From IMG/VR virus record IMGVR_UViG_3300022602_001935, positions 1 to 56,956 of that record: DNA of 56,956 nucleotides; one strand, written 5' to 3'. The notes below the pieces were generated by a model that searched no databases, had not been told where the DNA came from, and saw nothing but the letters and a program-made list of their open reading frames with translations. The first letter of the stretch is position 1; every line of letters starts with the position of its first letter. Below are positions 16,189-47,785 of this stretch, piece by piece. The DNA is from a virus. Lineage: Duplodnaviria; Caudoviricetes. Made by a program: the position numbers and the translations under genes.

Positions 16189-16208
16189 TTAATGGAATAA
16201 GAAATTAA

Positions 16209-19200
16209 ATGAGCGCAATAACAAACTTAACACCGCTAAACACCGTAACAGGTGGTATGCTCTTACCTATTGTTGATACTACAGTAGAACCTTATACCAC
16301 TAAACAGGTTAACATTGATAAAATAGGTCATTATGTTAATAACTCTTTATTGAGTACAATCATTCCTCCTGCTACAACAAGTACGCTTGGTGGTGTAATT
16401 GTCGGTCATGGATTAACTGTTACTACTAGTGGGGTATTAGTAGCAGTTAGTCAAGTTGTTACTACAACATGGGCAACATTGGCGCATGTTAACGATGATC
16501 AAGGTCCTTTACAGGTAAACATAGGAAAAGCCGCAGGAGTAACAGGACAAGGGACATATTCTATAGCAATTGGTGTAGGTGCAGGTAACATTAATCAAGG
16601 TATTACACAAGGTGCTCCTTATGGTAATGCAATTGCTATTGGAACTTTAGCCGGTGAAATTAACCAAGGTAATTCATCTGTTGCCATAGGTAATAATGCC
16701 GGAACAAATAATCAAGCAGTTGATTCTATTGCTATTGGATGTTTTGCAGGTAATACTGGCCAAAATACAATGTCTGTATCAATTGGTGTTAGTGCAGGAC
16801 AGTTTAATCAAGGGCGAGGAGCAATAGCATTAGGTAACAATGCTGGGCAAGGAGGGCAGGGTGCTAACTCAATTGCTATCGGCGCAAATGCTGGTGTTAC
16901 AGGTCAAGCCGCTAATTCTATTATATTAAATGCCACAGGAATTGTTCTTAACAATACATCAACATCAGGCCTATATGTAGCACCTATCAGATCAGTTGCA
17001 AGTGGTAATTTGATTTTATATTATAATTCAATTACTAACGAAGTAAGTTATGGAATAATTGATACGTCATTAATAGGTGCTACTGGTGCGGCTGGTGTAG
17101 ACGGAACAAATGGTGCCACAGGTGCTACTGGACTGTATATTACAACAGGTACCATTGTTAACGGTACAGACTTAGAACTAGTATTCAATAATGGTAATGT
17201 AGCAAATGTCGGGCGTGTTATTGGTCCGATTGGTCCACAAGGTGACCCAGGTACAACAGGTGCTACTGGTCTTACTGGAGGACCTGGCTCAACAGGTGCA
17301 ACTGGACCTCAAGGACCATCCGGTGTAGCAACTTATCAAGGCGGCACTGGTCCTGCTGGTGCTACCGGAGCAACTGGACCAAAAGGTGATCCAGGAGGAC
17401 CTATAGGAAGTACAGGTGCTACTGGTCCACAAGGTATACCAGGACGTGGGTACCAAGGTGCCAAAGGAGACATGGGAACAACAGGTGCAACTGGTGCTAC
17501 TGGAGCAACAGGACTACAAGGTGGTACTGGTTCTACCGGATATCAGGGATCTACAGGTGCTACAGGATATCAGGGATCTACAGGTGCTACTGGACAGGCA
17601 GGTACAAATGGTAGTACAGGTCCAATTGGATTAACTGGTGCTACTGGGTATCCCGGTAGTACAGGTGCTACAGGGCAGGCAGGTATAGATGGTAGTACAG
17701 GTCCAATTGGATTGACCGGTGCTACAGGTAATAATGGAGCGACTGGTGCTACTGGATATCAGGGAACAACAGGTGCTACTGGACCACAAGGTATAAATTT
17801 AACCCTGATAGGAAGCACAGATACTGTTACAACTTCTACCGTAGGATACGGTTCTGCTGGTCAAGGTTGGTACAGCACTATAACAAATCATGTTTATTTT
17901 TGGAACACACTAACTCAATCGTGGAATGACATTGGTGCTATCATGGGGCCACAAGGCGGACCTGGATCTCAAGGTGCTACAGGTAATGACGGCGGCACTG
18001 GTGCTACAGGTTATCAGGGATCTACAGGTGCTACTGGATATCAAGGAACGACAGGTGCTACAGGTAATGACGGAGCAACTGGTGCTACAGGTTATCAGGG
18101 ATCTACAGGTGCTACTGGATATCAAGGAACGACAGGTGCTACAGGTAATGACGGAGCAATTGGATCAACTGGTCTAACAGGTGCGACAGGTGTAGTCGGT
18201 CCGAGAGGTGCTACAGGTAGTGGATCAACAGGTGCTACTGGATTAGGTGCTACTGGTGCTACTGGTGCGCCAGGACCGATTGGTGCTACTGGTAGTGCAG
18301 GTCCACAAGGTACTCCGGGAACAAATGGATCGGCAGGTCCACAAGGTGATTTAGGTGCTACTGGTGCTACTGGTCCGCAAGGTGATCCTGGAGGTGCTAC
18401 TGGTAATGATGGTGCTACAGGTGCTACAGGTTTAACAGGTTCTCCCGGAATTAATGGTGCCACTGGTGCCACTGGTCCTGCGGGATCAGGTGCAACAGGT
18501 GCAACAGGTGTTTGGGGTAGTTCGGGAGCAACAGGTGCTACAGGACAAACAGGTGCTACAGGAGCACAAGGGTTATCCGGTGTCAAAGGAACTACAGGAG
18601 CACAAGGGTCAACCGGTGCTACTGGACAAACAGGCGCCACCGGTGTAAGTAATGTTCCTGGCGCAACAGGTGCAACTGGACCGGCAGGGGCCACTGGCTT
18701 GCCAGGTGCATTTGCCGCAATGGGATCAACAGGTGCAACTGGTGTTCCGGGTGCTACTGGTCAAACAGGACCTGCTGGTGCTACAGGTGCTGGTGCAACT
18801 GGAGCAAGTGGTTATATAGGTCGAGATGGTGCAACAGGAGCGACTGGTGCAGGTGCAACAGGTGCAACTGGATTTGGTGCTACTGGTGCTACTGGTGCTA
18901 CCGGTCCACAAGGTGCTACCGGTAGTGGATCAACAGGTGCTACAGGAATAGGTGCTAGCGGTGCAACAGGTGCCACTGGACCACAAGGTGCTACTGGTAG
19001 TGGATCAACAGGTGCAACTGGTCCTATCGGTTCACAAGGTAGTACAGGTGCTACTGGACAACAGGGAGCAACTGGTGCAGGTGCTACAGGCGCACAAGGT
19101 CCTATAGGATTTACAGGTGCGTCAGGATCAATCGGATTTACAGGAGGAACTGGTGCTACTGGTGCAGGTGCTACGGGTGCTACGGGTGCCCAAGGTGCTA

Positions 19201-19736
19201 CTGGACCACAAGGAGCAACTGGTATAGGATTAGTAGGAGCATCTGGGTCAACGGGTGCTACCGGACCAAGCGGGTCAACAGGAGCGACAGGACCTCAGGG
19301 GCCTGCTGGTACTGCCGCGGCACAAGGCGGAACCGGAGCAACTGGTCCTGCTGGCGCAACTGGACCACAGGGTGCAACAGGTAGTGGTGCAACAGGCGCC
19401 ACTGGTGCTCAAGGTGCAACAGGATCTACAGGTACTGTTACTATTGTAGGAAATACATATACTGTACAAACATTAGTAGTAAACACACTAACTGTAGGAA
19501 CACTAGGTTTAGGTTCAATTGTTTCAGGAAACGATCTAGCACTTAAAGCCGCAGGACAAATTACAACCAATGCACCATTTGTTTTAAACACAGCAACAAC
19601 AAGTACTCTGGCAACTATTGCAGGTATTACACAACGTGGTGCTATGGTATTTGCATTAGATGCTGTAGGTGTTGCTCAACCTGTTTATTATGATGGCACA
19701 TATTGGTGGACGATGAATAGAACAAGGATCTATTAA
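16209..19736 (+). CDS. collagen-like fibre protein with YadA-head-like repeats
   Basis: About 14-aa SIAIG/AIAIG repeats in the N-terminal region, then extensive Gly-X-Y arrays; N-terminus similar to the 14089 protein. Confidence 0.85.
17973..18159 (+). repeat. 81-nt tandem repeat (about 2.3 copies) within collagen gene
   Basis: Units start at 17973, 18054 and 18135 (ggtgctacaggtaatgacgg...), nearly identical. Confidence 0.85.
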
Positions 19737-21310
19737 TGCGTAAGTATTTTGTAGTTGCTAGTCATCCTGATCATAAACAAAATCTACATGACGAGTTAGT
19801 AGCACCAACAGGAAGTGCTACTGTTCCCTATAGGTCAGTTGATATTATCGATCCAATGCCCGGTAGCGAATACAATGGTACTTTTTACCTAACAGATCAA
19901 GAAGCACAAACTCTTAAAGAAGATCCAAGGGTTAGAGATGTGTGCCTTAGTGCAGAAGAACAAGGATTGATAAAAACTGTAACAAAAATTCGTCCAGGAC
20001 TATTTGACAAGGCAGTTACTGCAACAACTTCATCACACAACTGGGGATTAATTAGATGCATTAATACTAATAGTGATGTATCTTTTAATCAAGGTTACGG
20101 CAGTACTACTACAAATTACACTTATAATTTAGACGGTACAGGCGTAGATATTATTTTTATTGATACAGGAATTGAACCTGGTCATCCAGAATTTGCTGTT
20201 AACCCAGACGGTACAGGCGGATCAAGAGTAGTTAATATTGACTGGACTCAATTTGGTTATATTACCTCAGCGCCAACTGGCGGATTTATGGGAGATTGGG
20301 ACGGGCATGGTTCTAATGTTGCCAGTATTGCCGCAGGTAACACACAAGGTTGGGCACCCGGAGCGGCTATCTATAGTTTTAGATGTATCGGAAGTGATAA
20401 CGGAAGCGTTACTAGTATCTATAGTGGGGCTACATTGGGAGCAGTTGATAACTTACAAGCATGGCAAACTATTAGAGCATTTCATTTATCTAAATCTGTT
20501 ACATCAACAGGATATCGCAGACCTACAATAGTTTCATGTAGTTATGGATATCTTCAAGCATACACAAGATTAACTAATATCAACTATAGAGGAACAAATC
20601 ATCCTGTTACAACTACAACTGTTGCCTATGGTACTATTGGGGTTCCGGAAGGTGGTGCAGGATATTGTAATCAATTTTACTCTCCCGAAGATGCAGATAT
20701 ACAAAGTTGTATAAATGCCGGAGTTATAGTTGTCGGTGCTGCCGGGAATTATAGTCATAAAATAGATGTACCAGGTGGATTAGACTACAATAACTATTGG
20801 ACAGAATATACAGGGTTTAATTATTACTACCATAGAGGTGGAACTCCTGGATCTACACCCGGAGTAATATGCGTGGGATGTATAGGAGCATATACAGTAG
20901 ATACAGCAGGTACAGGAGAAGAACACAAACGACAATTTAGTGAAACTGGACCAAGAGTTAATATTTGGTCGCCTGGGGATTATATTATGGGTGCGTATGC
21001 TAATAAAGTATATGCTGGATCTGCTGTAGTTGATTACAGAGCATCGGGTTATTATCTAAATAAAATATCAGGTACCAGTCAAGCAACTCCTCAAGTAGCG
21101 GGAGTATTGGCATTAGTCTGTGAAGTTAGACCTTGGTTTACAGCCACAAATGCTCTTAACTTTATACAGGCTACTGCTTCTACATGGAATCCAAATCAAA
21201 ATTATTATTCAGCGGCTAGTGATTATAGCAATTTAGGATTATTACAAGGTGCTCCTTCTAAAGTATTATACAATCCTTTTAATTCTGCGACACCCCTAAA
21301 GATCGACTAA
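19736..21310 (+). CDS. subtilisin-like S8 serine protease
   Basis: Catalytic motifs IDTG, HGSNVASIAAG, AAGN, SGTSQATPQVAG; N-terminal prodomain-like segment. Confidence 0.9.
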   Translation: MRKYFVVASHPDHKQNLHDELVAPTGSATVPYRSVDIIDPMPGSEYNGTFYLTDQEAQTLKEDPRVRDVCLSAEEQGLIKTVTKIRPGLFDKAVTATTSSHNWGLIRCINTNSDVSFNQGYGSTTTNYTYNLDGTGVDIIFIDTGIEPGHPEFAVNPDGTGGSRVVNIDWTQFGYITSAPTGGFMGDWDGHGSNVASIAAGNTQGWAPGAAIYSFRCIGSDNGSVTSIYSGATLGAVDNLQAWQTIRAFHLSKSVTSTGYRRPTIVSCSYGYLQAYTRLTNINYRGTNHPVTTTTVAYGTIGVPEGGAGYCNQFYSPEDADIQSCINAGVIVVGAAGNYSHKIDVPGGLDYNNYWTEYTGFNYYYHRGGTPGSTPGVICVGCIGAYTVDTAGTGEEHKRQFSETGPRVNIWSPGDYIMGAYANKVYAGSAVVDYRASGYYLNKISGTSQATPQVAGVLALVCEVRPWFTATNALNFIQATASTWNPNQNYYSAASDYSNLGLLQGAPSKVLYNPFNSATPLKID

Positions 21311-26007: not shown

Positions 26008-26289
26008 ATGGTAAGAAGCATGTTAGGTAAAGAAATTGATATGGACAAACTATTAGAAAAAAATCAAATGATGCCTTCAGTAGGTAACGTCCGCATGAAC
26101 GCCCGAGGCGATGAATTAGGTCCAGGTGGAAAGATTGTTAAAAAACGAGAAGACCAAGTAGCGGCCTATTACGAAAATAATCCAATGGCCAGACCAGTTG
26201 CTAAAACTGCGCCTGTTGCTGATACTCCTCCTCCAAAGGTTGTAGAAACAAAATCTGAAAAGAAGAAAGGCGATAGCAATGGCAGTTAA
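26008..26289 (+). CDS. hypothetical protein
   Basis: AAGGA SD; motif VGNVRMNARGDELGPGG. Confidence 0.75.
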   Translation: MVRSMLGKEIDMDKLLEKNQMMPSVGNVRMNARGDELGPGGKIVKKREDQVAAYYENNPMARPVAKTAPVADTPPPKVVETKSEKKKGDSNGS

Positions 26290-26614
26290 AGGTAAAATTA
26301 TGCCCCTCGGGGATAAGGTAATGGTCACCGGAATGGAATTTGGTATGACCAAAACATCCTCAGGTTTATTCATCCCATCTACTGATGGAAAGACTACAGG
26401 CATTCACCCACGTTGGGGCAAGGTCTATGCAATCGGACCAGACCAGACAGATGTAGAAGTAGGACAGTGGATTCTTATCGAGCACGGTCGGTGGACTCGT
26501 GCTATTAAAGTAGTAGAAGAAGATGGCAGAGAGATTAAAATTCAAATGATCGATAACGATGCTATCATGGTCATTTCGGACGAACAGCCAGCAACTGGCG
26601 ATATTATTGCTTGA
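26279..26614 (+). CDS. groES: GroES/Cpn10-like co-chaperonin
   Basis: IMPLGDKVMV, KTSSGLFIP, GKVYAIGP, VEVGQWIL. Confidence 0.85.
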   Translation: MAVKGKIMPLGDKVMVTGMEFGMTKTSSGLFIPSTDGKTTGIHPRWGKVYAIGPDQTDVEVGQWILIEHGRWTRAIKVVEEDGREIKIQMIDNDAIMVISDEQPATGDIIA

Positions 26615-36508: not shown

Positions 36509-37012
36509 ATGCTAAAACTTGTAACATTTCCCAATACTATTCTTGCAGAACGCATGCCGGATTTTGATTTTGAAAATCCTGTGATGGATCCAAAAGAATT
36601 AGAAAAACAAATGATCGAATTTATGTTTGCCAATAATGGATTAGGTCTTGCCGCTAATCAAATCGGCATTCGTGCCCGTGTGTTTACCATGGGGCACAGT
36701 CAAGACCCAGACTCGGCACAGGCATTCTTTAACCCAATCATTGAAAACATTTCAGAAGAACTGTATGATGTGGAAGAAGGATGTTTGAGTTTCCCCGGAA
36801 TTTTTGTTAAAATAAAACGTCCCAGAAAGATTCAAGTCACTTATCAAACTTCATCAGGAGAAACTAAAACTGAAATATTAGAAGACTACAATGCCAAATG
36901 CTTCTTACACGAGTATGATCATTTAGAAGGCATTACATATAAAGACAGAACCAGCGCACTTAAATGGGCAATGGCAATTAAAAAATCAAAACCAAAGAGG
37001 AAGTTTAAGTAA
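36509..37012 (+). CDS. def: peptide deformylase
   Basis: GLGLAANQIG, EGCLS, HEYDHLEG. Confidence 0.95.
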   Translation: MLKLVTFPNTILAERMPDFDFENPVMDPKELEKQMIEFMFANNGLGLAANQIGIRARVFTMGHSQDPDSAQAFFNPIIENISEELYDVEEGCLSFPGIFVKIKRPRKIQVTYQTSSGETKTEILEDYNAKCFLHEYDHLEGITYKDRTSALKWAMAIKKSKPKRKFK

Positions 37013-39286
37013 ATGTTAGAACCAAATAGCGATCTCGAAGCCATGTTTGAACGTGCGGTTAGTGTAGCAACTAAACAACAGCACGAGTATATTACATTAG
37101 AGCATTTTTTATACAGCATGGTATTGGACCAAAAGTTTAGCGAATTGCTAAAAAACTTTGGTGCTGAAGTAGATCAATTAAAAAAGAACCTTGAAAAGTT
37201 CATTGAAGTTGATTTGGTTGATATCAAGACTAACAATCCTAATCAAAAGCCTAAGAAAACAAACACAGTCGAGCGTATGTTGAATCGTGCGTTTACACAA
37301 GTATTGTTCAGCGGTCGTTCTACAATTGAGCCAATTGACTGCTTTATCAGTTTGTTCTCAGAAAAGAAAAGTTTTGCTAACTTCTTCATGCGCAAGGCCA
37401 AGATTGACAAAGACAAGTTTATTGAATATGTAAACAATGAAGTAGTTCAAGAAGGACAAGAAGTCGGTGATGCCAGCAACAATCAACTTGAGCGTATGTT
37501 GGTTCAGTACTGCGCTAACTTGAATAACAAAGTAAAACAGAAAAAAGTAGATCCTGTTATTGGACGTGAAAAAGAAATTGAGGATATGCAACTGATCCTT
37601 GCTCGTCGTCAAAAGGCTAATGTAATGCTGATCGGTGATCCTGGCGTCGGGAAGACTGCCATAGCCGAAGGTTTAGCCAAGAAGATTGTAGAAGGTAATG
37701 TTCCTAAGTTTATTCAAGATCATACTGTCTATAGTTTAGATATCAGTGCTATGTTAGCAGGCTCTAAGTACCGCGGTGACTTTGAAGAGCGTCTAAAGAT
37801 GGTATTGGCCGCACTTGAGAAAAAAGGCAAGTGTATTCTATTCATCGATGAAGCACACATGATGAGCGGTGCTGGTGCTGTCAGCGGCGGTAGTAATGAC
37901 ATGGCTAATATGTTGAAGCCAGCATTGGGCAAAGGTGTACTAAAAGTTATTGCTTCAACTACATGGGAAGAATTCCGTAAACACTTTGAAAAGGATCGTG
38001 CTCTAATGCGCCGTTTCCAACGTGTCACAGTAGATGAGCCTTCAGAAGCATTGGCTATCAAGATTATCAAAGGTCTTAAAAAGTATTACGAAAAACATCA
38101 CGGTGTTAAGATTACTAATCAAGCAGTTATTGATTCAGTTAAGTATTCTATCAAATATTTGGCAGATAAGAAGTTGCCAGATAAGGCAATTGACTTAATT
38201 GACTGTGCCTGTGCTCGTTTTAAGATCAAAGATGTAGAAGGTGGTATTGTTGATCACGAAGAAATTGTATTCGAAGTAAGCAAGGCTGCTGGATTGCCAG
38301 TAGAGCGTATTGCGGCAAAAGAAGACAAGAATCTCAAAGACCTTGACAAGAACATGCGTGGTAAAGTATTTGGACAAGAGTCAGCAATTGAAATTTTGTT
38401 AGACAAGATCTATATTGCTCAAGCAGGACTAAAATCTCTTAATCGTCCTGTAGGTAATTTCTTGTTTGTTGGGCCAACTGGTGTCGGCAAGACTGAAACT
38501 GCTAAAGTATTGGCATCGAGTCTCGGAGTACAACTTGTACGTTTTGACATGAGTGAGTTCCAAGAACAACATTCTGTGGCTAAATTCATCGGTGCTCCTC
38601 CCGGATATGTTGGCTTTGAAGACAATGCAGGGCAACTTATTACCAAACTACAAGAGCATCCAAATGCTGTAATACTGTTTGACGAGATTGAAAAGGCACA
38701 TCCAAGCGTAGCAAATGTCCTGTTAGGTCTAATGGATAACGGATTCGTAACAGGATCGAATGGTAAAGTAGCAGATGGACGCAACGCAATCATCATCATG
38801 ACTTCAAATCTCGGAGCCGCTGATGCTGAAAAGAACGCTGTTGGCTTTGGTAGTTTAGAACGTGGCGATGAAAGCAACGATGCTATCAACAGTTTCTTCA
38901 AACCAGAATTCCGCAATCGTTTAGATGGCATTATCAAGTTTGGCAAGTTAGATCATAACACAATGGCCAAAATTGTCAAGAAGTTTATTGACGAATTGAA
39001 TGGTTTGTTGAAAGACAAACATGTTGCTATCAAACTTACAGCAGATGCCGCAGAACTATTGATTAAGAAAGGATTCAATCGTAAAATGGGTGCTCGCCCG
39101 TTAGCACGTACAATTGATGAAATGATTAAGAAACCTTTGAGTAAGGAAATTTTATTTGGTAATCTTACCAACGGTGGAATTGTAGAAGTAGGTTGCGATA
39201 AAGACAAAATTGTGTTAAACTATGTAGAAGTTCTACCTGTTGTAGAAACTGTACAAGAAAACACAGATGAAGTACCTTCTAACTGA
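37013..39286 (+). CDS. clpA: ClpA-like ATP-dependent Clp ATPase
   Basis: Clp N domain; two AAA+ modules (GDPGVGKT/FIDEAH; GPTGVGKT/FDEIEKAH); VGFG ClpP-docking loop; no ClpB middle domain. Confidence 0.92.
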   Translation: MLEPNSDLEAMFERAVSVATKQQHEYITLEHFLYSMVLDQKFSELLKNFGAEVDQLKKNLEKFIEVDLVDIKTNNPNQKPKKTNTVERMLNRAFTQVLFSGRSTIEPIDCFISLFSEKKSFANFFMRKAKIDKDKFIEYVNNEVVQEGQEVGDASNNQLERMLVQYCANLNNKVKQKKVDPVIGREKEIEDMQLILARRQKANVMLIGDPGVGKTAIAEGLAKKIVEGNVPKFIQDHTVYSLDISAMLAGSKYRGDFEERLKMVLAALEKKGKCILFIDEAHMMSGAGAVSGGSNDMANMLKPALGKGVLKVIASTTWEEFRKHFEKDRALMRRFQRVTVDEPSEALAIKIIKGLKKYYEKHHGVKITNQAVIDSVKYSIKYLADKKLPDKAIDLIDCACARFKIKDVEGGIVDHEEIVFEVSKAAGLPVERIAAKEDKNLKDLDKNMRGKVFGQESAIEILLDKIYIAQAGLKSLNRPVGNFLFVGPTGVGKTETAKVLASSLGVQLVRFDMSEFQEQHSVAKFIGAPPGYVGFEDNAGQLITKLQEHPNAVILFDEIEKAHPSVANVLLGLMDNGFVTGSNGKVADGRNAIIIMTSNLGAADAEKNAVGFGSLERGDESNDAINSFFKPEFRNRLDGIIKFGKLDHNTMAKIVKKFIDELNGLLKDKHVAIKLTADAAELLIKKGFNRKMGARPLARTIDEMIKKPLSKEILFGNLTNGGIVEVGCDKDKIVLNYVEVLPVVETVQENTDEVPSN

Positions 39287-40494: not shown

Positions 40495-40869
40495 ATGCTA
40501 TTAAACGAATTTTTTGGTTCTTATGACGCCGCTGGCGCTAAGAAGGAAGATGAAAAACATAAAAAGAAATATGAAGAAGCCGAGTTGGCTGACGCGATTT
40601 ATGAATTCATTCTTCACAACGACAAACTCCACAAAGAGCAGTTTATTCCTATTGCTCAGAAAATACACCGCAACCCCACAAAAGAACACGATAACGAAAT
40701 TTGGATGCCACTGGTGACCAAAGGCTGTATGGAATTCTACCATCACAACAAGATGATGGATGATCCACTGAAGATGTTTCACAAAAAATTCCGCAGTGAT
40801 CTTTGCGAACTATTTGCCACGGAGTGTAATAAAGACATTCTCAAAGGCGAATTCGAGTTAGGAGATTAA
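40495..40869 (+). CDS. hypothetical protein (MLLNEFF N-terminus)
   Basis: After TAAATA (40459-40464) and GAGG SD. Confidence 0.75.
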   Translation: MLLNEFFGSYDAAGAKKEDEKHKKKYEEAELADAIYEFILHNDKLHKEQFIPIAQKIHRNPTKEHDNEIWMPLVTKGCMEFYHHNKMMDDPLKMFHKKFRSDLCELFATECNKDILKGEFELGD

Positions 40870-40870
40870 T

Positions 40871-41857
40871 GTGTTTCTAAATGAACTATTCAACAACACA
40901 AAAACTCCTCTAAATGAAGGTGGTAATGTATTTGCAGGTAAGACTACTGCTATCAAGCGTGAAGATATCCCTTCAACTCTAAATGCTTACTTTGCTGAAC
41001 TGAAAAGTATGTTCCCAAAGAAGGCCGCAATCTTTAACGAAAAGAATTTTATGCCACTTGGCTCTGTAGGTAAGAAAGCAGTCAGTGGAGATATTGACTT
41101 AGGTGTTAGTGCTACAGACATCCTTGATAAAACAATGAGTGATGCGAGCATTGCGGCTTGGGGAGTTGATCCTAAAGCAGTAGCCGCAGAGTTTGAAGCA
41201 TTAAAGAAACGTGCTCGCACAAGTACTCCAGAACAACTAAGAATGAAAGCATTCTTAAAACATCTAACACTATACATCAATAGCCATGCTCCAAGCCTAT
41301 ACTGTGATGAAAAGAAAGTCACAGACGGCAACATCTTTGGATTGTTTCCACAAATAGACGCACAAGGACAACATGTAGGTAGCGGTGTTCAGATTGATTG
41401 GATGATCGGTGATCTAAATTGGTTAAAGTTCAGTTATTACTCCGCGGCTTACCCAGAAGGCAGTAATGTTAAAGGACTTCACAGAACACAATTGATGTTA
41501 AGTGCTTTCCAGGTAGCAGGTCTAAGTTTTAATCACGTTGGCGGTGTTAAAGACAAAGAGACTGGAGAAGTTATTGCTCGCGATCCAGACCAAGCATTAG
41601 GTGTGTTAGGTCAAAGACTAGGATTTAAGATCACACAAGCAGATGCAGAAGACTATTATAAACTTCACAAACTATTCCAAACAAAGATGAGTCCAGAGAA
41701 TTACAACTCGCTAATCAACATTTACTTTAAGATCTTGGACAGCACTCGTGCTGACATTCCAGATGATCTACAAGGCGAATGGCGTAAGCGTCAGGGCAGT
41801 CTTGGACTAACAGGTAAGTTCCTACCTGACAATTCAGCATTAAAGGCGAGACAATAA
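40871..41857 (+). CDS. Pol-beta superfamily nucleotidyltransferase-like protein
   Basis: LGSVGKKAVSGDIDLGV (hGS-x-DxD) and third Asp in VQIDWM; GTG start after AGGAG. Confidence 0.7.
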   Translation: MFLNELFNNTKTPLNEGGNVFAGKTTAIKREDIPSTLNAYFAELKSMFPKKAAIFNEKNFMPLGSVGKKAVSGDIDLGVSATDILDKTMSDASIAAWGVDPKAVAAEFEALKKRARTSTPEQLRMKAFLKHLTLYINSHAPSLYCDEKKVTDGNIFGLFPQIDAQGQHVGSGVQIDWMIGDLNWLKFSYYSAAYPEGSNVKGLHRTQLMLSAFQVAGLSFNHVGGVKDKETGEVIARDPDQALGVLGQRLGFKITQADAEDYYKLHKLFQTKMSPENYNSLINIYFKILDSTRADIPDDLQGEWRKRQGSLGLTGKFLPDNSALKARQ

Positions 41858-44646
41858 TGAGTGGCGTAGCAGGTGCCGATCGTGTAAAAAGTCGTCAAGA
41901 CTTTCAACAGTTCTTAAAATCTTACAAAGGTCTGATCAGTCAGTTCCCTGGATTTGTAAGTTTAAATCCCAGCGGTAGTTATAACAGCAATCTTGAGAAG
42001 AATGACTTTGGTGATATAGATCTTATTGTTCATATCCAAAGCGATCAAGACAAAGCCACAGTTAAAAAACAACTACAGGCATTCTTTATGAAACAGCCTG
42101 AAACAGTTATTGTTCCTTTTAGTTCTGCCAAACACGCGGGCAAGCGTAGTTACAACGCAGGTGAATTGGTCAGTGTTCGTTATCACGATGATCACTTAGG
42201 TTATTCAGCACAGATTGACAACATTGTGGCATTAGATCAAAAGGAAGCAGGATTCAAACAGCAGTTCTTAGATTGGCCCGCTGAAAAGCAAGGCCTAATA
42301 TTAGGTTTAATTAAAATTGCCGCAATTGAAACTGATCCAAGAATTCTGTTTAAGAAATTAGGCATACCTGATCCAGGCCCTCTTGAAGAAGGTCAGGAAT
42401 ATGAATTCAATCTTAGTTCAGTAGAACTTCAGTTAAGAAGAATTACCTACAAGCCAGGTACTTACGAACAATTGGGCAGAGAAGTCCTTTGGAATAGTAG
42501 AGACTTTGAAGACATACAAAAGTTATTGTATCAATATAACTTAAACGCAGACTTTGACCAACTATTAGCACAGGCCAAACAGGTAATAAAGAATCCACGT
42601 AGTAATGCAAGGATGCAGGGTGTGTTCTCAAGTATGATCACAGTCAAGAGCGGAGAAGTAGGTACAGCCAAAGGTGCTGGCAAAGAAGCCGCATTGGCCA
42701 AGATACAGAATACATTTAGAGAATCACGTAGCCTGCTACATGCTCTAACAGAATCTGTAAATCCAGGAACTATTGTATTTGCGTTTGGAAGACTACAGCC
42801 TCCTACAATTGGACACGAAATACTTGTCAATACAGTTAAGCAGGTAGCAAAACAAAATGGTTGTCCTTACATTATCTATATCAGCAAAACAGTTGGCAAG
42901 AGTCCGGCAGATAAATTAAAAAATCCTCTCACTGTAGATCAAAAGATGATGTACTTAGGAAAGATGTTCCCAGGTACACACTTTGCTCCGGCTACTGATC
43001 AAGTTCGTACTCCTATTGAAGCCGCTAAATTCCTAAATCAAAAGTATCAAAATCTTATTCTTGTAGCAGGCGGTAGTCGTGCTGAAGAATTTGATAAACT
43101 GTTAAATGACTACAATGGTAGAGACTATAATTTTGATAGCATTCGTGTTGTTAAGATCGATAGAGATCCCGATGCCGATGATGCTTCGGGTATGAGCGGA
43201 ACTAAAATGCGTCATGCGGCCATGGCTGATGACTTTGAAGCATTTAGATCAGGACTGCCAGGAGCATTAGATGATGCTACAGCACAACAACTTATGCAGG
43301 ATGTGAAAGCCGGTATGACTCCAACACCTAAAATTAAAAAAACAAAAGAAGCAATGTTGCCCACAAGTGCGTTTGCTGGATCTAAGAAAAACAAATTAGG
43401 ACCAGCAGGACAGTGGAAGAACACAGGACCAAGTAAGAATCGTCCAGCAAGAGCAGGCGACTTAGTAGGTGGTGCCGCCGAAAGTATTGAGTTAGATGAA
43501 TCTAACGATATTAAAGGTACATTAAGAACAATTGCCAACGATATTGGCGAACCTGTCACTAATGTATATGAAACACTCAAGCATATGGCCAAACGTTTTT
43601 ATGATAGTCACGGAGACCTGAAAGGGTTCGGCATGGTGGCAGGCGGAGTAGGCGGGCGCTGGTTCCAAACATTTTATTTCAACAGACTACAGAATGAATT
43701 GTTTGACCTAAGTAAACAGAATACAAAAATTACAGTACCTTTACAACAGTTTTTACGAGGTGTAGAAGTCAAAGGCAAAATTGAAAATGCCAAAGGTTTT
43801 AGTGCTATTAGTAAAGAACTTCCAGATATACTTGCTGATATAGGTACTAAAATAGGATATGCTCCTTTGGCTAACAATGCTCGCCGTTGGATTCACCATA
43901 GAGAAGAATACGAACAGTACCTAAGTGATTTAGAATTAAGTGATTATGAAGATGACGATGATTTAGATTCTGTACCCAAAACTCCTAAAGATCCAGAGAT
44001 GGGCAAACAGCGTAGTCAAGCAGAAGATATTGTCAATGATGTTTTAAGAAAACTACCGAGTAGAATTGCTGGCGATATTCGCAATGCTATTGCTCGTGCA
44101 CCAAACAAACTACAGGCCTTACAACAAGAACTACAAAAACGTGGTGTTAAGGTTCCTATGGAAAACATGGCTGGTGTAGGAGATATGGATAATCCAGAAT
44201 TTAATGCTGTGTATGAAGCCAAAGCCACAAAGACAAGACTTGATCCAAGTTGCTGGAAAGGCTATCATAAAGCAGGTACCAAAGTCAAAGGTGGTACAAG
44301 AGTCAATAACTGTGTGCCCAATGAAGCCGCTAATCCTGCGCAACAGGCCGCTATTGCTATTGCTAAAAAGAAAAAGCGAGGCACAACAGAAGCAGACGAT
44401 ATAGAACATGGATACCCTATGATGGCTACAGAACACAAGAAGGGTGTTAAGGCTGTTAAATATACTAAGAAACCTAAAGGTATTGAACCACCGAAACCCA
44501 GAAATTTTGTTGCTAAGAACGCAGTAATGGGCGGTGCTGGTGCTCATAAGAATAAGAAAAAAGAAGCAAAGCATAAACATGTAGAGATCGGTGAGGCTTG
44601 GGAACGAGAAATGGCTCGTGCTATTAGACTTTTGGAAAATAAATAG
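41857..44646 (+). CDS. multidomain protein: Pol-beta NTase + HxGH-type (cytidylyl/NMN-adenylyltransferase-like) domain + low-complexity modules
   Basis: SGSYNSNLEKNDFGDIDLIV and AQIDNI; FAFGRLQPPTIGH...MSGTKMR; CWKGY...VNNCVP motif near the C-terminus. Confidence 0.7.
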   Translation: MSGVAGADRVKSRQDFQQFLKSYKGLISQFPGFVSLNPSGSYNSNLEKNDFGDIDLIVHIQSDQDKATVKKQLQAFFMKQPETVIVPFSSAKHAGKRSYNAGELVSVRYHDDHLGYSAQIDNIVALDQKEAGFKQQFLDWPAEKQGLILGLIKIAAIETDPRILFKKLGIPDPGPLEEGQEYEFNLSSVELQLRRITYKPGTYEQLGREVLWNSRDFEDIQKLLYQYNLNADFDQLLAQAKQVIKNPRSNARMQGVFSSMITVKSGEVGTAKGAGKEAALAKIQNTFRESRSLLHALTESVNPGTIVFAFGRLQPPTIGHEILVNTVKQVAKQNGCPYIIYISKTVGKSPADKLKNPLTVDQKMMYLGKMFPGTHFAPATDQVRTPIEAAKFLNQKYQNLILVAGGSRAEEFDKLLNDYNGRDYNFDSIRVVKIDRDPDADDASGMSGTKMRHAAMADDFEAFRSGLPGALDDATAQQLMQDVKAGMTPTPKIKKTKEAMLPTSAFAGSKKNKLGPAGQWKNTGPSKNRPARAGDLVGGAAESIELDESNDIKGTLRTIANDIGEPVTNVYETLKHMAKRFYDSHGDLKGFGMVAGGVGGRWFQTFYFNRLQNELFDLSKQNTKITVPLQQFLRGVEVKGKIENAKGFSAISKELPDILADIGTKIGYAPLANNARRWIHHREEYEQYLSDLELSDYEDDDDLDSVPKTPKDPEMGKQRSQAEDIVNDVLRKLPSRIAGDIRNAIARAPNKLQALQQELQKRGVKVPMENMAGVGDMDNPEFNAVYEAKATKTRLDPSCWKGYHKAGTKVKGGTRVNNCVPNEAANPAQQAAIAIAKKKKRGTTEADDIEHGYPMMATEHKKGVKAVKYTKKPKGIEPPKPRNFVAKNAVMGGAGAHKNKKKEAKHKHVEIGEAWEREMARAIRLLENK

Positions 44647-44650
44647 TATT

Positions 44651-46474
44651 ATGAAAATAGATCAATTATTCGAATCAGGTGACGATTTAGCATCTCAGTT
44701 TGCTCAGATGGCTAAAGATAAAGGCATGAATGTTAGAGTTCGTGGAACCCCAGATCAAGAACGACAACGTACACAAGATATGTTGGCGCAACGTCGTTCT
44801 GATCAAGAAAAACAAAGTCAATTAGCAGGTGAAAAAGATTTTGCTAATCTTGACCAACTTGAAGCCGAATATGCAAAAATGAAAGACGAATATCAATCAT
44901 TAGGCGGATCTAATTGGCAGTATGCTGATCGCGAACAGAATCTATCAGCCAGCGAACGCAAGGCCCGCAGTATGGAAGACGGACTAAGAGCACTATGGTC
45001 GAGAATTCAACGTGCTAAGAAGTATAGTGGCGGTGTGGCGGAAGCACATGATCCTAAATTTACAGGATTCATGAATAAAGCATTAGGCACACGCCAAGAT
45101 GCAAAACCGCAGTCATACGATCCAAATACCACAATGACTTTTGATAATATGCCAGGCTACAAACATGCGTTTAAGTTTGGTATGAATATTATTAAAAAGA
45201 TGGACCCAGATACTAAGGAACACTTTGCAAATGCAAGTGACAATACATTGTTAAGTTACATGATCGATATTGCCGAGAAAAAAGGTTTTATTCCAAAGTA
45301 TTTTGTAGAAGAAGATTTAGACGAAGTTACCCAATGGTTTGATGAACAATTTCACGATCCTGAAATGGAAGGTTGGAGTTGGGCTGATTTATTAAGAGAT
45401 ATGATTGGTCAGGAACCTAATGCCGCAAATAGAGCGGCAGCTCAATCACATAAACAAATGATGGCTAAATCACAAGCGGCTAAAGATAAACCTGAATCAA
45501 TAGATCCAACTAAATTAAAAGTAGTAGATCGTACAGATACTGGAAAATCAGAGATATGGTATCCGCACGGTGACTTTTTTGGTACATCATCTTGGGCCGT
45601 AGTACAAGACGGATTCAAAGATAAAGCTCATGCTGAACATGCCCTAAAACAACTTAAGACTAATCCTAATATTGTCAACATCATAAAAAAGGCTATTGCA
45701 GATGAAGGTTTGGCGGAGGGCGATGACCGAACCGTTGCCAATATCAAAAACTACGAGAGAGAATTGGCCAAATATAAAAAATTCAATGCCAATGGAGCAC
45801 ATGATGTCAAAATTAAAAATCTTGAAAAAATCATAGCCCACTTGAAATCAAAACAAGGTGTGGCGGAAGGCGATGCTCTTGCTGATTTTTTAGCAAAGGG
45901 CGGAAAAATTCATCAATTACCTTACAAAAAACCACGCAAGGCTGATAAAACAGATTATGGTAGCAAACATATTGGCGGATCTGGTGACAAAATGAAAAGT
46001 AGTCGAACTGGAAAAGCCGCCAAGACACAAGGCACTAAAGTAGTTGGCGTAGGAGAATCTGCTCCTAAGGGATGGGAAGGTACAGTTAAAGCAATGAAGA
46101 AGCATAAAGAAATTGATAATCCTTACGCTTTAACTAACTGGATGAAAAACAAAGGCTACAAGAGCCACAAAAAAGAAAGCATGGAAAATCATCCTGACGA
46201 GAAAGAAGATAAAGCACTTATTCGTCAGATGGTTAAAAAACAAGCATTGAAACGCGAAAACATGATGGCAAAAGAACAGCATGAAGATCATGAAATATCA
46301 ATGGCCACAAGCGAATTGAAAAATGTTTATATCAATGCTAAAAAATTGTTTGATATTATTAAAAAACGCAGTGAACAAGAAGGGTTAGATGCTTGGCAAC
46401 AGAGCAAAATTACCAAAGCCTCGGATTACTTAAATAGTGTATTAACGGCTATTAGAGGCGAACCACGTAGATAA
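44651..46474 (+). CDS. modular protein with GVAE-delimited segments (putative head-packaged polyprotein)
   Basis: ATG 44651 follows TAAATA (44640-44645); MKIDQLFES; GVAE/GLAE sites at 45032, 45707 and 45857. Confidence 0.75.
   Translation: MKIDQLFESGDDLASQFAQMAKDKGMNVRVRGTPDQERQRTQDMLAQRRSDQEKQSQLAGEKDFANLDQLEAEYAKMKDEYQSLGGSNWQYADREQNLSASERKARSMEDGLRALWSRIQRAKKYSGGVAEAHDPKFTGFMNKALGTRQDAKPQSYDPNTTMTFDNMPGYKHAFKFGMNIIKKMDPDTKEHFANASDNTLLSYMIDIAEKKGFIPKYFVEEDLDEVTQWFDEQFHDPEMEGWSWADLLRDMIGQEPNAANRAAAQSHKQMMAKSQAAKDKPESIDPTKLKVVDRTDTGKSEIWYPHGDFFGTSSWAVVQDGFKDKAHAEHALKQLKTNPNIVNIIKKAIADEGLAEGDDRTVANIKNYERELAKYKKFNANGAHDVKIKNLEKIIAHLKSKQGVAEGDALADFLAKGGKIHQLPYKKPRKADKTDYGSKHIGGSGDKMKSSRTGKAAKTQGTKVVGVGESAPKGWEGTVKAMKKHKEIDNPYALTNWMKNKGYKSHKKESMENHPDEKEDKALIRQMVKKQALKRENMMAKEQHEDHEISMATSELKNVYINAKKLFDIIKKRSEQEGLDAWQQSKITKASDYLNSVLTAIRGEPRR
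45711..45871 (+). repeat. 161-nt exact duplication, copy 1
   Basis: Identical to 47019-47179 by direct comparison. Confidence 0.95.
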
Positions 46475-46475
46475 T

Positions 46476-46850
46476 ATGAGAGCAAAAGAATTCATAGTCG
46501 AAACTAAACCAGAAGGCAAGATGCACCCACATCATGTTAATGTTCAGCAGGGTGTATCGAGGTCACGCGATGTAGGTGGGTATGATCGTGTGTATCATAT
46601 GAATCGACTAATGATGGCTATGGGTATGGCTGACGGTAAAAGTGAAAAACCTGTAGAGATGGATTCTGCATCATGGACAGAAAAATACAATACACATCAT
46701 CCATATACAGAAGAAGAACACAACATGATCAAGTCTGCGTTGAACACAATTCCCACAGACAGTAAAGAAATTACTCCTTGGTCAAAGAGTATTGAACCAG
46801 ATGATACTCATAAAGTAAGCCCTGTAGCAAATTGGATGAAGAAGAAATGA
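46476..46850 (+). CDS. hypothetical protein (MRAKEFIVE N-terminus)
   Basis: 124-aa ORF in the same operon. Confidence 0.75.
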   Translation: MRAKEFIVETKPEGKMHPHHVNVQQGVSRSRDVGGYDRVYHMNRLMMAMGMADGKSEKPVEMDSASWTEKYNTHHPYTEEEHNMIKSALNTIPTDSKEITPWSKSIEPDDTHKVSPVANWMKKK

Positions 46851-47785
46851 GAATAAATGATCTACTTGTTGAAACCAAACGCAAAAGTTCTGCTGTAAAA
46901 CTACAAAGTGCTTGGGAAAAGCAACAGGCTAAATCTACTGCCAGTCGCAAGCGTGGCGAAGAATACATGGCCAAGATCAAACAAGATGTTGCTGACAAAT
47001 CAAAGAAAGAGCAAGGTGTGGCGGAGGGCGATGACCGAACCGTTGCCAATATCAAAAACTACGAGAGAGAATTGGCCAAATATAAAAAATTCAATGCCAA
47101 TGGAGCACATGATGTCAAAATTAAAAATCTTGAAAAAATCATAGCCCACTTGAAATCAAAACAAGGTGTGGCGGAAGGCTTGAGTGATACACAAAAGAAG
47201 ATTGAAGATACTATACTCAAACTTGAACAACGATTGAAGTTTGCTAAAACACCAGAACAATGGGATAACATAAAAAATCGCATTGAACGATTACAAGCAG
47301 GGTTGAAGCGTAGTAAGCAAGGTGTGGCGGAAGATTGGCAAAAGGTCAATAGACATGACAAGACCGACGGCCTAAGCAAAAAGGCTGTTAGTGCTTATCG
47401 TAGAGAACATCCTGGTTCAAAATTAAAAACTGCTGTCACAACCAAACCTTCAAAATTAAAGAAAGGTTCTAAGTCTGCTAAACGTAGGGCAAGTTTTTGT
47501 GCTCGTATGAGTGGAATGAAAAAACACCGCACTGGTGCTAAAACAAAACGTGATCCAGATAGCAATATTAATAAAGCACTTCGCCGTTGGCATTGTGAAA
47601 GCATAGAAGAGATGCAGGAACTAATTATGATTGGAGAACAATATATCTCCAAATTAAAAGAAGATGGATCAGCAGGCGGAACAAGTTCCGGGTCTATCGC
47701 CAGTGTATCAATGCCCTTAGGCGGCAAAAAGAAAAAGAAAGGTGGCGGAGTAAATTTACTCGGCGGACCTGTATTCAAACGCTAA
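46847..47785 (+). CDS. modular protein with three QGVAE sites (putative head-packaged polyprotein)
   Basis: ATG 46847 (MRINDLLVE); 50-aa and 52-aa modules, then a basic domain with RRASFCARM...LRRWHC. Confidence 0.75.
   Translation: MRINDLLVETKRKSSAVKLQSAWEKQQAKSTASRKRGEEYMAKIKQDVADKSKKEQGVAEGDDRTVANIKNYERELAKYKKFNANGAHDVKIKNLEKIIAHLKSKQGVAEGLSDTQKKIEDTILKLEQRLKFAKTPEQWDNIKNRIERLQAGLKRSKQGVAEDWQKVNRHDKTDGLSKKAVSAYRREHPGSKLKTAVTTKPSKLKKGSKSAKRRASFCARMSGMKKHRTGAKTKRDPDSNINKALRRWHCESIEEMQELIMIGEQYISKLKEDGSAGGTSSGSIASVSMPLGGKKKKKGGGVNLLGGPVFKR
47019..47179 (+). repeat. 161-nt exact duplication, copy 2
   Basis: Identical to 45711-45871. Confidence 0.95.

Follow-up and report, generated by a model that had tools for sequence, protein, structure and literature searches.

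Six copies of one short DNA motif lie in frame within two neighbouring genes of an uncultured virus, which raises the question of whether the motif is conserved for its DNA or for its peptide, and whether it marks the borders at which parts of proteins are exchanged. The window, by which we mean the whole 56,956-nucleotide stretch analysed, comes from what is best explained as a freshwater phage, uncultured and related to T4-type phages of 260-352 kb. The motif, which we refer to as the joint, sits in a cluster of mosaic genes on the + strand that adjoins a family-B DNA polymerase gene. At its upstream side are two genes with related leaders (40495..41857; MLLNEFF... and MFLNELF...), for which no family was found, followed by a 929-aa mosaic protein (41857..44646; PHROG 3041/395) with a cytidylyltransferase/NMNAT-like core, small basic modules and no GVAE joint, pieces of which are common to other loci. 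Gene A (44651..46474), whose probable start is the ATG at 44651 just past the stop of the 929-aa ORF at 44646, encodes a 607-aa mosaic protein that begins with the leader MKIDQLFE and contains three joints and no fewer than five modules. It matched no Pfam or PHROG family, its segments are found separately in other contigs, and against cultured phages it gave weak C-terminal matches in three records and nothing else; no cultured phage carries gene A. Gene B (46476..46850; 124 aa, leader MRAKEFIVE) has no joint and lies tightly coupled to both its neighbours, starting 1 nt past the gene A stop and sharing an ATGA overlap with gene C. The ORF of gene C (46847..47785), characterised further by domain search and homologs, encodes a 312-aa mosaic protein that runs from the leader MRINDLLVE through an N-terminal module, modules M1 and M2 and a DUF6321 module to a Gly/Lys-rich tail. 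The T4 late-promoter word TATAAATA occurs once in the window against 6.3 expected, and is therefore uninformative on expression timing.

The joint is exact (GGTGTGGCGGARG) at 45032, 45857, 47015, 47165 and 47321, and the copy at 45707 (GGTTTGGCGGAGG) carries one mismatch by which Leu replaces Val. All six copies lie on the + strand and in frame as G-V/L-A-E, split over the ORFs at 44651-46474 (gene A) and 46847-47785 (gene C), with spacings of 675, 150, 150 and 156 nt; CAA stands directly 5' of the motif in four of them. Gene A holds copy 1 (45032..45044; S-G-G-V-A-E followed by A), copy 2 (45707..45719; GGT TTG GCG GAG G, G-L-A-E followed by G) and copy 3 (45857..45869; K-Q-G-V-A-E followed by G), whilst gene C holds copy 4 (47015..47027; E-Q-G-V-A-E, then G), copy 5 (47165..47177; K-Q-G-V-A-E, then G) and copy 6 (47321..47333; K-Q-G-V-A-E, then D), the last immediately 5' of DUF6321. 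At up to two mismatches the window contains eight matches, against a mean of 0.85 and a maximum of 4 in 100 dinucleotide shuffles, none of which reached eight; at up to one mismatch the full 56,956-b record gave six forward and no reverse matches, and a control read backwards gave none in either direction.

The six copies bound modules of unequal standing. Between joints 1 and 2 lies the 675-nt module (45045..45706, + strand, about 225 aa), for which an Atlas structure search named no family (feature scores of at most 0.80 and TM of at most 0.34, all below the bar). Module M1 is present as copy a (45700..45871) and copy b (47008..47179), both on the + strand, which form a 172-nt direct repeat at 98% identity (family D11) with a joint on either side; module M2 (47178..47320, + strand; LSDTQKK...RSK) follows copy b. 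Because of this direct repeat the two 150-nt modules are a single module present twice, and the six joint copies therefore represent about four independent instances. A sequence-only reading of this DNA had claimed six in-frame copies in two genes and had listed the modules between them; the copies and all four spacings were reproduced, and its module lengths stand, whilst the two 150-nt modules that it counted separately are one duplicated 172-nt block.

The synonymous sites of the joint are conserved far beyond what its peptide needs. In the window, Ala is encoded by GCG in all six copies and Val by GTG in all five that have it, exactly as the sequence-only reading had counted, and both codons are rare in the + strand ORFs, where 8.9% of the 1035 Val codons are GTG and 7.6% of the 1367 Ala codons are GCG. 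The window has no tRNA gene, and its rare codons are therefore not explained by a phage tRNA. Far beyond the window, in IMG/VR, the same motif recurs with a core of 21 nt, AAG CAA GGT GTG GCG GAA GGC, encoding K-Q-G-V-A-E-G. A codon-blind scan of IMG/VR for KQGVAEG gave 122 distinct matches among those listed, of which 118 fall in the longest open frame, and among these 118 listed in-frame sites 93 use GTG-GCG, 89 use GGT-GTG-GCG and 101 use AAG for Lys, against a local background of 11% for GTG and 8% for GCG. Sites that lie beyond selection by the 16-mer scan are biased as well: among the matches listed, 26 of 27 E-GVAE sites carry GTG and 24 carry GCG, and of 23 GVAE sites with any other preceding residue 20 carry GTG and 17 carry GCG. 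The 16-mer matches themselves have QGVAE in the longest frame in 166 of 170 distinct cases among those listed. As a control, the invariant DUF6321 peptide KTAVTTKP was taken in 34 instances, of which just two share the commonest DNA, and its codons drift freely. Third-position information amounts to 0.9-1.8 bits within the 21 nt and to at most 0.25 bits outside, giving the element sharp edges, and the variant peptides GVEE, GMAE, GLAE and GIAE are one or two base changes off the same DNA. Synonymous changes were found in 25 of the 118 listed KQGVAEG sites (about 21%), so the fixation is strong, not absolute. The earlier proposal that the constraint acts on DNA and not on peptide alone is borne out by these codon tests. 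In 596 Gb of prokaryote genomes the 21-mer occurs in two stretches only, one of them a phage-like mosaic gene on a MAG contig. The other, an exact match in a Rhizobiales chromosome, was judged to be chance: the gene that holds it is GC-rich and has cellular neighbours, and the match falls within a region of deaminase fold (TKQGVAEGNKVFGA).

Sequence comparison places the joint at the break points where modules have been gained, lost, duplicated or exchanged, both inside single phage genomes and from one to another, and the conserved DNA motif sits at the borders of the exchanged segments. Homologs of gene C keep the N- and C-terminal parts and contain zero, one or two internal modules that differ from one to the next, so that these genes differ by whole modules. 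Parts seen in such homologs include GNAT, deaminase, peptidase (M78 or M48) and nucleotidyltransferase. Where contigs share blocks at 85% identity or more, 82 of 195 internal block ends lie within 5 nt of a joint, against 2.3% of random positions, and 94 of the 195, about half, lie more than 50 nt from one. M1 has 97% identity to contigs L015/L220, where its flanks differ, and is thereby found in three contexts at 97-98% identity (two in the window, one in another contig with unrelated flanks), whilst M2 has 96% identity to contig L057 over 47175-47333, a match that stops at the joint, and is also present in P0011 in a different context. The metagenome comparison used assembled contigs (Logan) of four runs and was interpreted in the contig-covered parts. 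In the lake metagenome run X3, an 843-nt contig passes directly from 45031 to 47015, its shorter side measuring 155 nt, and has exactly the 675-nt module missing. Loose contig ends occur at joint edges in all four runs: at 45036 by copy 1, where contigs join or diverge, at 47009, 47017 and 47025 by copy 4, and at 47316 and 47333/47334 by copy 6 (four of four runs). Four weak joints (45031 to 45857, 45871 to 47154, 45871 to 47312 and 47181 to 47314) were not counted as evidence because one side of each spans just 20-25 nt, hardly longer than the joint. The gene C homologs, the block ends, the X3 contig and the occurrence of M1 and M2 elsewhere together uphold the earlier claim that modules are gained, lost or exchanged exactly at the repeat. 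Part of the coincidence between break points and joints could stem from selection that favours in-frame junctions where domains meet.

Integron cassettes and R64-type shufflons are units delimited and made exchangeable by short repeats, and both need a dedicated tyrosine recombinase and structured sites. The sequence-only reading had likened the locus to such a system: within an ORF, the cassettes of an integron-like array would be excised and inserted at the repeat by a dedicated site-specific recombinase. Direct repeats do bound cassettes of variable content here. However, the recombinase and structured sites of integrons and shufflons were not found. Among five related records of 260-352 kb, two of them rated at least 99% complete, Phage_integrase (PF00589) and Resolvase (PF00239) each matched in none, whilst the controls were positive in 14/14 and 12/14 reference genomes respectively, and a PHROG scan of the 52 ORFs of the window, which is 15% of a genome, named no recombinase. 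The joints show no attC-like hairpin, circle-type joints that go back on themselves were absent from the contigs of the four runs (contigs drop rare forms), and the units are ORF fragments, not whole genes. As there is no tyrosine or serine recombinase in the five relatives and a RecA/UvsX-like gene in four of them, the integron analogy fails, and we regard such an array as highly improbable. We lean towards an account in which a discrete 21-nt in-frame joint would separate independently exchangeable protein modules in mosaic genes, with exchange between joints probably proceeding by the phage's general (RecA/UvsX-type) or by microhomology-mediated recombination, without a dedicated site-specific recombinase. 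We propose that the codons stay fixed because modules with intact flanking joints keep moving. In the same account the hydrophobic-x-Glu peptide and leaders of the form M-x-x-x-(E/D/Q)-h-h-x-E would make the proteins substrates of a T4-type prohead protease, and the joint-bearing proteins would be packaged, then divided inside the capsid into small proteins of their own. Taken whole, with its codon-fixed exchange joint, its general or microhomology recombination and its protease substrate, we consider this account somewhat probable. From work on T4, 21 nt is short for efficient homologous recombination.

Other explanations place the constraint elsewhere. The codons might be fixed for the mRNA, where pausing at module borders (by rare codons or anti-Shine-Dalgarno pairing) would aid co-translational folding or processing, or where an RNA-binding or RNA-cleaving factor would have its site, with shuffling a by-product of identical DNA; the rarity of GTG and GCG here and the constant position of the element on the coding strand, in a single frame, agree with this. 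But the pairing of the 21-mer with a generic anti-Shine-Dalgarno tail is -5.7 kcal/mol, at about the 10th percentile of the window's 21-mers, the six copies share no local fold, and rarity does not predict that AAG and GGC are fixed too or that GGT, CAA and GAA, which are common codons, belong to the element. A larger RNA structure is unlikely because the flanks of the joint carry no information, and we judge an RNA- or translation-level element unlikely overall. We think it quite unlikely, too, that the joint is the target of a sequence-specific nuclease (homing-type or another phage DNA enzyme) whose breaks would be mended with co-infecting genomes as template, so that modules are copied in or out. 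Its sharp 21-nt edges do resemble a protein recognition site, the break points fall at the site, and free-standing HNH genes exist in related genomes (for example adjoining the capsid gene in G001), yet no nuclease gene lies consistently beside the mosaic clusters of the five genomes, nor in the cluster of the window, and with 3-6 copies of its own site per genome such an enzyme would face self-targets. A plain flexible linker, with codon identity left by recent common descent and mosaicism created by assembly chimeras at the shared 21-mer, would suit the Gly-flanked linker peptide and the tendency of metagenome assemblers to mis-join at repeats. Simple co-descent fails, however, because the joints have remained identical beside module DNA whose identity has dropped to 66-80%; as for chimeras, Logan contigs use 31-letter words, which by reasoning should not be collapsed by a repeat of 21 nt, the shorter side of the X3 junction contig measures 155 nt, and M1 is met in its three contexts. 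We therefore hold the linker reading to be very improbable.

The protein side of the preferred account, an exchange joint that is also a protease substrate, draws on the cleavage rule L/I-X-E given for T4 gp21 (PMC9026906), with which cleavage at V-A-E|G would plausibly fit by analogy. Of 32 contexts upstream of DUF6321, 31 have Glu as the P1 residue and 27 have L, V, I or F at P3; counting against cleavage, P3 at the joint is Val where the T4 rule has L/I, and AF2 helices run through the joints, with dips in pLDDT. A T4 gp21-type prohead protease (Peptidase_S77) and Gp23 are present in three of the five relatives, with no match for either in the other two, one of which is rated 99% complete. 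The capsid proteins of the three S77-bearing relatives have LLAE|S, SLME|N and YLKE|N at the aligned propeptide place. No head protease was found in the window, itself 15% of a genome. A leader of about 10 residues ending in hydrophobic-x-Glu is present, by a loose pattern, in all three of genes A-C against two of 47 other ORFs in the window; elsewhere the same pattern occurs in 38 of 59 joint-bearing ORFs, a figure that allowed up to four Met candidates each and is without a matched control, and 21 of the 59 lack it. Among cyanophages, 45 virion proteins are reported for S-SCSM1 and NMNAT-like proteins have been detected in virions, according to the portion of PMC9602691 consulted. The leaders, which resemble capsid targeting sequences, the L-x-E sites in the relatives' capsid proteins and the cyanophage virion proteomes make capsid packaging of the joint proteins, and their cleavage at V-A-E|G, plausible. 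A single 21-nt element that works as recombination joint in DNA and as prohead-protease site in protein, releasing capsid-packaged and injected modules, is possible but on present evidence doubtful. Such a dual use would let giant freshwater phages draw on a common pool of small modules for the combinatorial assembly of polyproteins, in a manner like exon shuffling without introns, and selection for staying exchangeable would freeze rare codons across hundreds of otherwise unrelated junctions. That the modules might be anti-defence effectors is an idea taken from the T4 internal proteins alone.

The nearest known system at the DNA level is the PeSL cassette of T4-type phages, also treated, reportedly, by Comeau and colleagues in 2014. 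As described in the available text of Arbiol et al. 2010 (PMC2839356), PeSLs are intergenic promoter and terminator stem-loops that move whole genes and form mini-circles; like the joint, they are short conserved DNA motifs repeated in T4-type hyperplastic regions, where recombination between copies inserts, deletes or replaces the intervening DNA. The joint differs from them in being 21 nt long and inside ORFs, where it forms seven codons and moves parts of proteins, with no stem-loop and no circles in contigs. Conserved in-frame motifs between variable segments are also found in the GRMs of T-even gp38 adhesins, which, in what Trojet et al. 2011 (PMC3157838) set out in the portion consulted, form the structural core of one protein family, in a fixed order and needed for function; the joint, in contrast, connects modules that are unrelated and that vary in number and order across many different proteins, and its synonymous sites are fixed. 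A further likeness is to the T4 internal proteins and Alt, which have capsid targeting sequences and are processed by gp21; as the consulted parts of PMC9026906 and PMC3012670 present them, they share with the proteins described here a short N-terminal leader ending in hydrophobic-x-Glu. The internal proteins are also small, basic, highly diverse and conserved in the leader only, and a gp21-type protease is present in the relatives; but in T4 they are single-module genes with one N-terminal cut (both ends in Alt), whereas here an ORF has several modules and candidate internal sites. Polyvalent proteins of phages and conjugative elements (Iyer et al. 2017, PMC5512222) are mosaic polypeptides of many small and enzymatic domains, for which packaging and delivery alongside the DNA, and in some cases processing by a peptidase, have been predicted; the available text of that paper, unlike our case, describes no conserved junction sequence and has no occurrence of the word 'linker'. 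The window proteins are mosaic in architecture as well; signature domains of polyvalent proteins were absent from them, and M78/M48 peptidase, GNAT and deaminase parts were seen in homologs only.

We found no published description of the joint; literature containing its peptide strings concerns alpha-synuclein and Parkinson's disease or a transglutaminase assay, none of it phages. If the joint drives exchange, it would be a clear natural case of synonymous-site selection for evolvability, that is, for the ability to recombine, and would explain how phages build and rebuild multi-module proteins. With the 21-mer as a signature, whole repertoires of exchangeable modules can be harvested from metagenomes, and if the modules are packaged and injected this harvest would be a catalogue of candidate early-acting proteins of abundant lake phages.

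The joint also bears on DUF6321, a domain of cultured marine phages that has no function assigned to it and for which no paper was found by name. In gene C it forms a basic, helical module (47330..47620, + strand; Pfam PF19846, E 5.7e-11) that scores 43.3 bits against a gathering cut-off of 28.5, at residues 175-253 of a 317-aa ORF, and its AF2 model has a pLDDT of 70.9. It has no relative in the PDB by sequence, Foldseek gave a best E-value of 7.8 there, and its matches in BFVD are other DUF6321 proteins only. DUF6321 is present in 336 cultured marine phage records; S-SCSM1 has a DUF6321 protein, and, counting against cleavage and packaging, the domain is also found in T7-like pelagiphages, once as a free 81-aa gene without a leader.

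The repeat GGTGTGGCGGARG is present exactly at positions 45032, 45857, 47015, 47165 and 47321 of the window and with one mismatch at 45707 (motif search), six copies in all, as the sequence-only reading had described. The whole record holds six forward and no reverse matches, with none for a backwards-read control, and at ≤2 mismatches the window contains 8 matches against a mean of 0.85 and a largest value of 4 in 100 dinucleotide shuffles. As also claimed, all six copies lie in frame and encode G-V/L-A-E, spread over two open-reading frames, gene A (44651-46474) and gene C (46847-47785), between which lies the small, tightly coupled gene B (46476-46850). In the open-reading frames of the window, GTG accounts for 8.9% of Val and GCG for 7.6% of Ala codons, and these repeat elements, which we term joints, use GTG at 5/5 Val and GCG at 6/6 Ala positions. 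Genes A and C share a 172-nt direct repeat of 98% identity (45700-45871 vs. 47008-47179), thus the two 150-nt modules proposed earlier are a single module (M1) present twice; that the modules are bounded by the repeat stood, as M1 homology begins and ends at joints.

In IMG/VR the record is a virus contig with a completeness rating of 15%. Among the phage genes it encodes are those for a family-B polymerase, a clamp loader, PhoH and tail fibres containing collagen-like repeats. Five IMG/VR records of 260-352 kb carry polymerases with 58-66% identity to the one encoded here, and the nearest cultured polymerases are those of jumbo phages, namely Sinorhizobium phage Phosso (51%), Agrobacterium phage Atu_ph07 (46%) and large E. 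coli phages (44%). The five large relatives contain 3-6 motif copies each, on one strand throughout (control 0) and mostly 10-40 kb or less from the polymerase gene, in genes with the same leaders (short N-terminal stretches) and linkers. Parts of a 3.2-kb stretch were found in 20 freshwater/lake metagenome runs from 16 studies; the best-matching runs may include the source sample.

The joint is a genuine, non-random feature and is found widely. At least 131 IMG/VR stretches contain the 16-mer CAAGGTGTGGCGGARG; among the matches listed, 166 of 170 distinct occurrences encode Q-G-V-A-E when the longest open frame is read, and their flanks are unrelated. A codon-blind scan of IMG/VR for K-Q-G-V-A-E-G returned at least 124 stretches and at least 122 distinct matches, 118 in frame; among these listed matches GGT-GTG-GCG is used at 89 sites, GTG-GCG at 93, AAG for Lys at 101 and GAA for Glu at 110, with GTA or GCA making up most minority forms. 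In 80 loci picked by DUF6321 protein similarity alone, GGTGTGGCGGAR stands at 12/14 GVAE sites over a background of 11% GTG and 8% GCG. Beyond the reach of the 16-mer selection, E-GVAE sites use GTG at 26/27 and GCG at 24/27, and GVAE sites after other residues use them at 20/23 and 17/23, respectively. As a control, the codons of the invariant DUF6321 peptide KTAVTTKP drift freely: the commonest DNA form represents 2 of 34 distinct instances, with Ala encoded by GCT 19, GCA 8, GCG 4 and GCC 3 times and Val by GTT 18, GTA 8, GTG 6 and GTC 2 times (n = 34). The position profile delimits a 21-nt core (AAG CAA GGT GTG GCG GAA GGC) with 0.9-1.8 bits of third-position information, vs. ≤0.25 bits at every flanking position, and one or two base changes separate the joint DNA from that of the variant linkers GVEE, GMAE, GIAE and, in the window, GLAE. 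The preference for GTG-GCG in the codon-blind scan and the drift of the control support the earlier proposal that the DNA itself is constrained and not the peptide alone. Only two stretches in 596 Gb of prokaryote genomes hold the exact 21-mer: one is a phage-type mosaic gene on a MAG contig, the other (L355, a Rhizobiales isolate contig, 1501-1521) lies in a cellular nucleoside-deaminase-like gene (TKQGVAEGNKVFGA) flanked by genes for a permease and an isomerase-like protein; in this GC-rich DNA the match has probably arisen by chance. A literature search found no paper on the joint peptide in a phage context and none on DUF6321, and the word 'linker' is absent from the text of the polyvalent-protein paper (PMC5512222).

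Comparisons between genomes support the joints as module boundaries. Homologues of gene C retain its N-terminal module, DUF6321 and Gly/Lys tail and differ, as had been suggested, by whole modules, with no internal module (P0006), one different (P0001), two different (P0003) or the two of the window; in other homologues a linker of this kind connects DUF6321 with parts of GNAT, deaminase, peptidase or nucleotidyltransferase type. M1 shares 97% identity with a stretch of one other contig (retrieved as both L015 and L220) in which both neighbours are different, whilst M2, also a small internal module of gene C, matches locus L057 at 96% identity and the match stops at the joint. When the fetched loci were compared all-against-all (internal ends of blocks of ≥85% identity, n = 195), 82 ends lay ≤5 nt from a joint, compared with 2.3% for positions drawn at random from these loci, and 94, about half, lay >50 nt from any joint. 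Contigs of four lake/freshwater runs mapped on the window yielded a single well-supported junction: in run X3, a contig of 843 nt joins 45031 directly to 47015 (11 shared letters, shorter side 155 nt), placing M1 directly after the first module of gene A without the 675-nt module (45045-45706), again in keeping with gain or loss at the repeat. Another X3 contig spans gene B, reaching from 45841 into gene C, and contigs turn into unrelated sequence at joint edges 45036, 45706, 45871, 47009/47017, 47025, 47162, 47316 and 47333/47334; four further contig joints with 20-25 nt on one side were excluded from the count. The repeat should not have produced these joins as assembly artefacts, because Logan contigs use 31-letter words and the repeat is 21 nt. 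In runs X2 and X4, summed contig depth over M1 (47061-47167) is 3-10× the depth of adjacent bins, which fits the presence of M1 in several genomes or contexts of those samples.

An integron-like array had been put forward to explain these cassettes. We reject an integron mechanism, since Phage_integrase and Resolvase matches were each found in 0/5 large relatives (controls positive), the joint has no hairpin and its six window copies have no common local fold; together with RecA-like genes in 4/5 large relatives, this leads us to infer general or microhomology-mediated recombination between joints, which would take place during co-infection or replication. The codons would stay fixed because only modules with intact joints remain exchangeable. 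It is also possible that the joint is a nuclease recognition site, or that it has a role at the mRNA level. Recombination between joints would follow the same exchange logic as PeSL-mediated shuffling (PMC2839356, in excerpt) and as the exchanges that gp38 adhesins undergo at conserved motifs (PMC3157838, in excerpt), but joints would act inside open-reading frames and between unrelated modules. We group the system with motif-mediated modular shuffling in T4-type phages, with an unusually clear synonymous-site signature.

The repeat had further been proposed to double as a T4-type prohead protease site, which we consider possible, though tentatively and somewhat short of probable. T4 gp21 cleaves after Glu in L/I-X-E, and processing of the T4 internal proteins depends on positions 8 and 10 of a 10-residue targeting sequence at their N-terminus (PMC9026906, in excerpt); outside this sequence these proteins are highly diverse (PMC3012670, in excerpt). 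Genes A, B and C begin with the leaders MKIDQLFE, MRAKEFIVE and MRINDLLVE; a loose leader pattern matches 3/3 of these vs. 2/47 other window open-reading frames, and elsewhere 38/59 joint-bearing frames, a count without a matched control. In the 32 distinct contexts that precede the DUF6321 start, Glu occupies P1 in 31 and one of L/V/I/F occupies P3 in 27; these contexts include leaders directly abutting the domain. Peptidase_S77 and Gp23 are found in 3/5 large relatives, whose capsid proteins read LLAE|S, SLME|N and YLKE|N at the aligned propeptide position. Two further points count for cleavage or packaging: DUF6321 lies among structural or packaging genes in cultured phages (one DUF6321-bearing S-SCSM1 protein is labelled 'Virion protein' in BFVD), and NMNAT-like proteins detected in cyanophage virions (PMC9602691, in excerpt) resemble the cytidylyltransferase/NMNAT-like core (PHROG 3041/395) of the neighbouring 929-aa protein (41857-44646), in which this core is fused to small basic modules (NPAQQAAIAIAKKK, CWKGY...NCVP) that recur in many gene C homologues. 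Against cleavage, P3 at the joint is Val and not L/I, neither S77 nor Gp23 was matched in 2/5 large relatives, the leader is missing from some joint-bearing proteins, a T7-like pelagiphage encodes a leaderless DUF6321, and AF2 helices run through the joints, with pLDDT dipping at each.

Among cultured phages, 336 records contain DUF6321, including those of 254 Synechococcus, 37 Prochlorococcus and 21 Pelagibacter phages; the domain adjoins terminase genes in P-TIM68 and P-SSM2 and lies between scaffold and capsid genes in pelagiphage Eistla. Two window genes of unknown family (40495-40869 and 40871-41857) have the near-identical leaders MLLNEFF and MFLNELF, and a similar leader (MFVDDLF/MFISDLF) starts joint-bearing genes of relatives G001 and G004. 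In G001 an HNH-type endonuclease frame (L350, 2633-3379) directly adjoins the major capsid gene. The relative with the closest polymerase (G002, 66%; 342,865 b, rated 99% complete) has no Pfam Gp23 and no Peptidase_S77 match; either its head genes have diverged strongly or its completeness has been misjudged. Across the whole window there is a single occurrence of the T4 late-promoter word TATAAATA vs. 6.3 expected from shuffles, a depletion and not an enrichment. The dominant repeat families of the window are the Gly-X-Y collagen-like 9-nt repeats that largely make up two tail-fibre genes (699 and 1175 aa, 14089-19736), and a subtilase (Peptidase_S8) gene (19736-21310) ends the fibre cluster. 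The window also encodes a Cpn10-like co-chaperonin (26279-26614), a peptide deformylase (36509-37012) and a ClpA/B-type double AAA+ protein (37013-39286).
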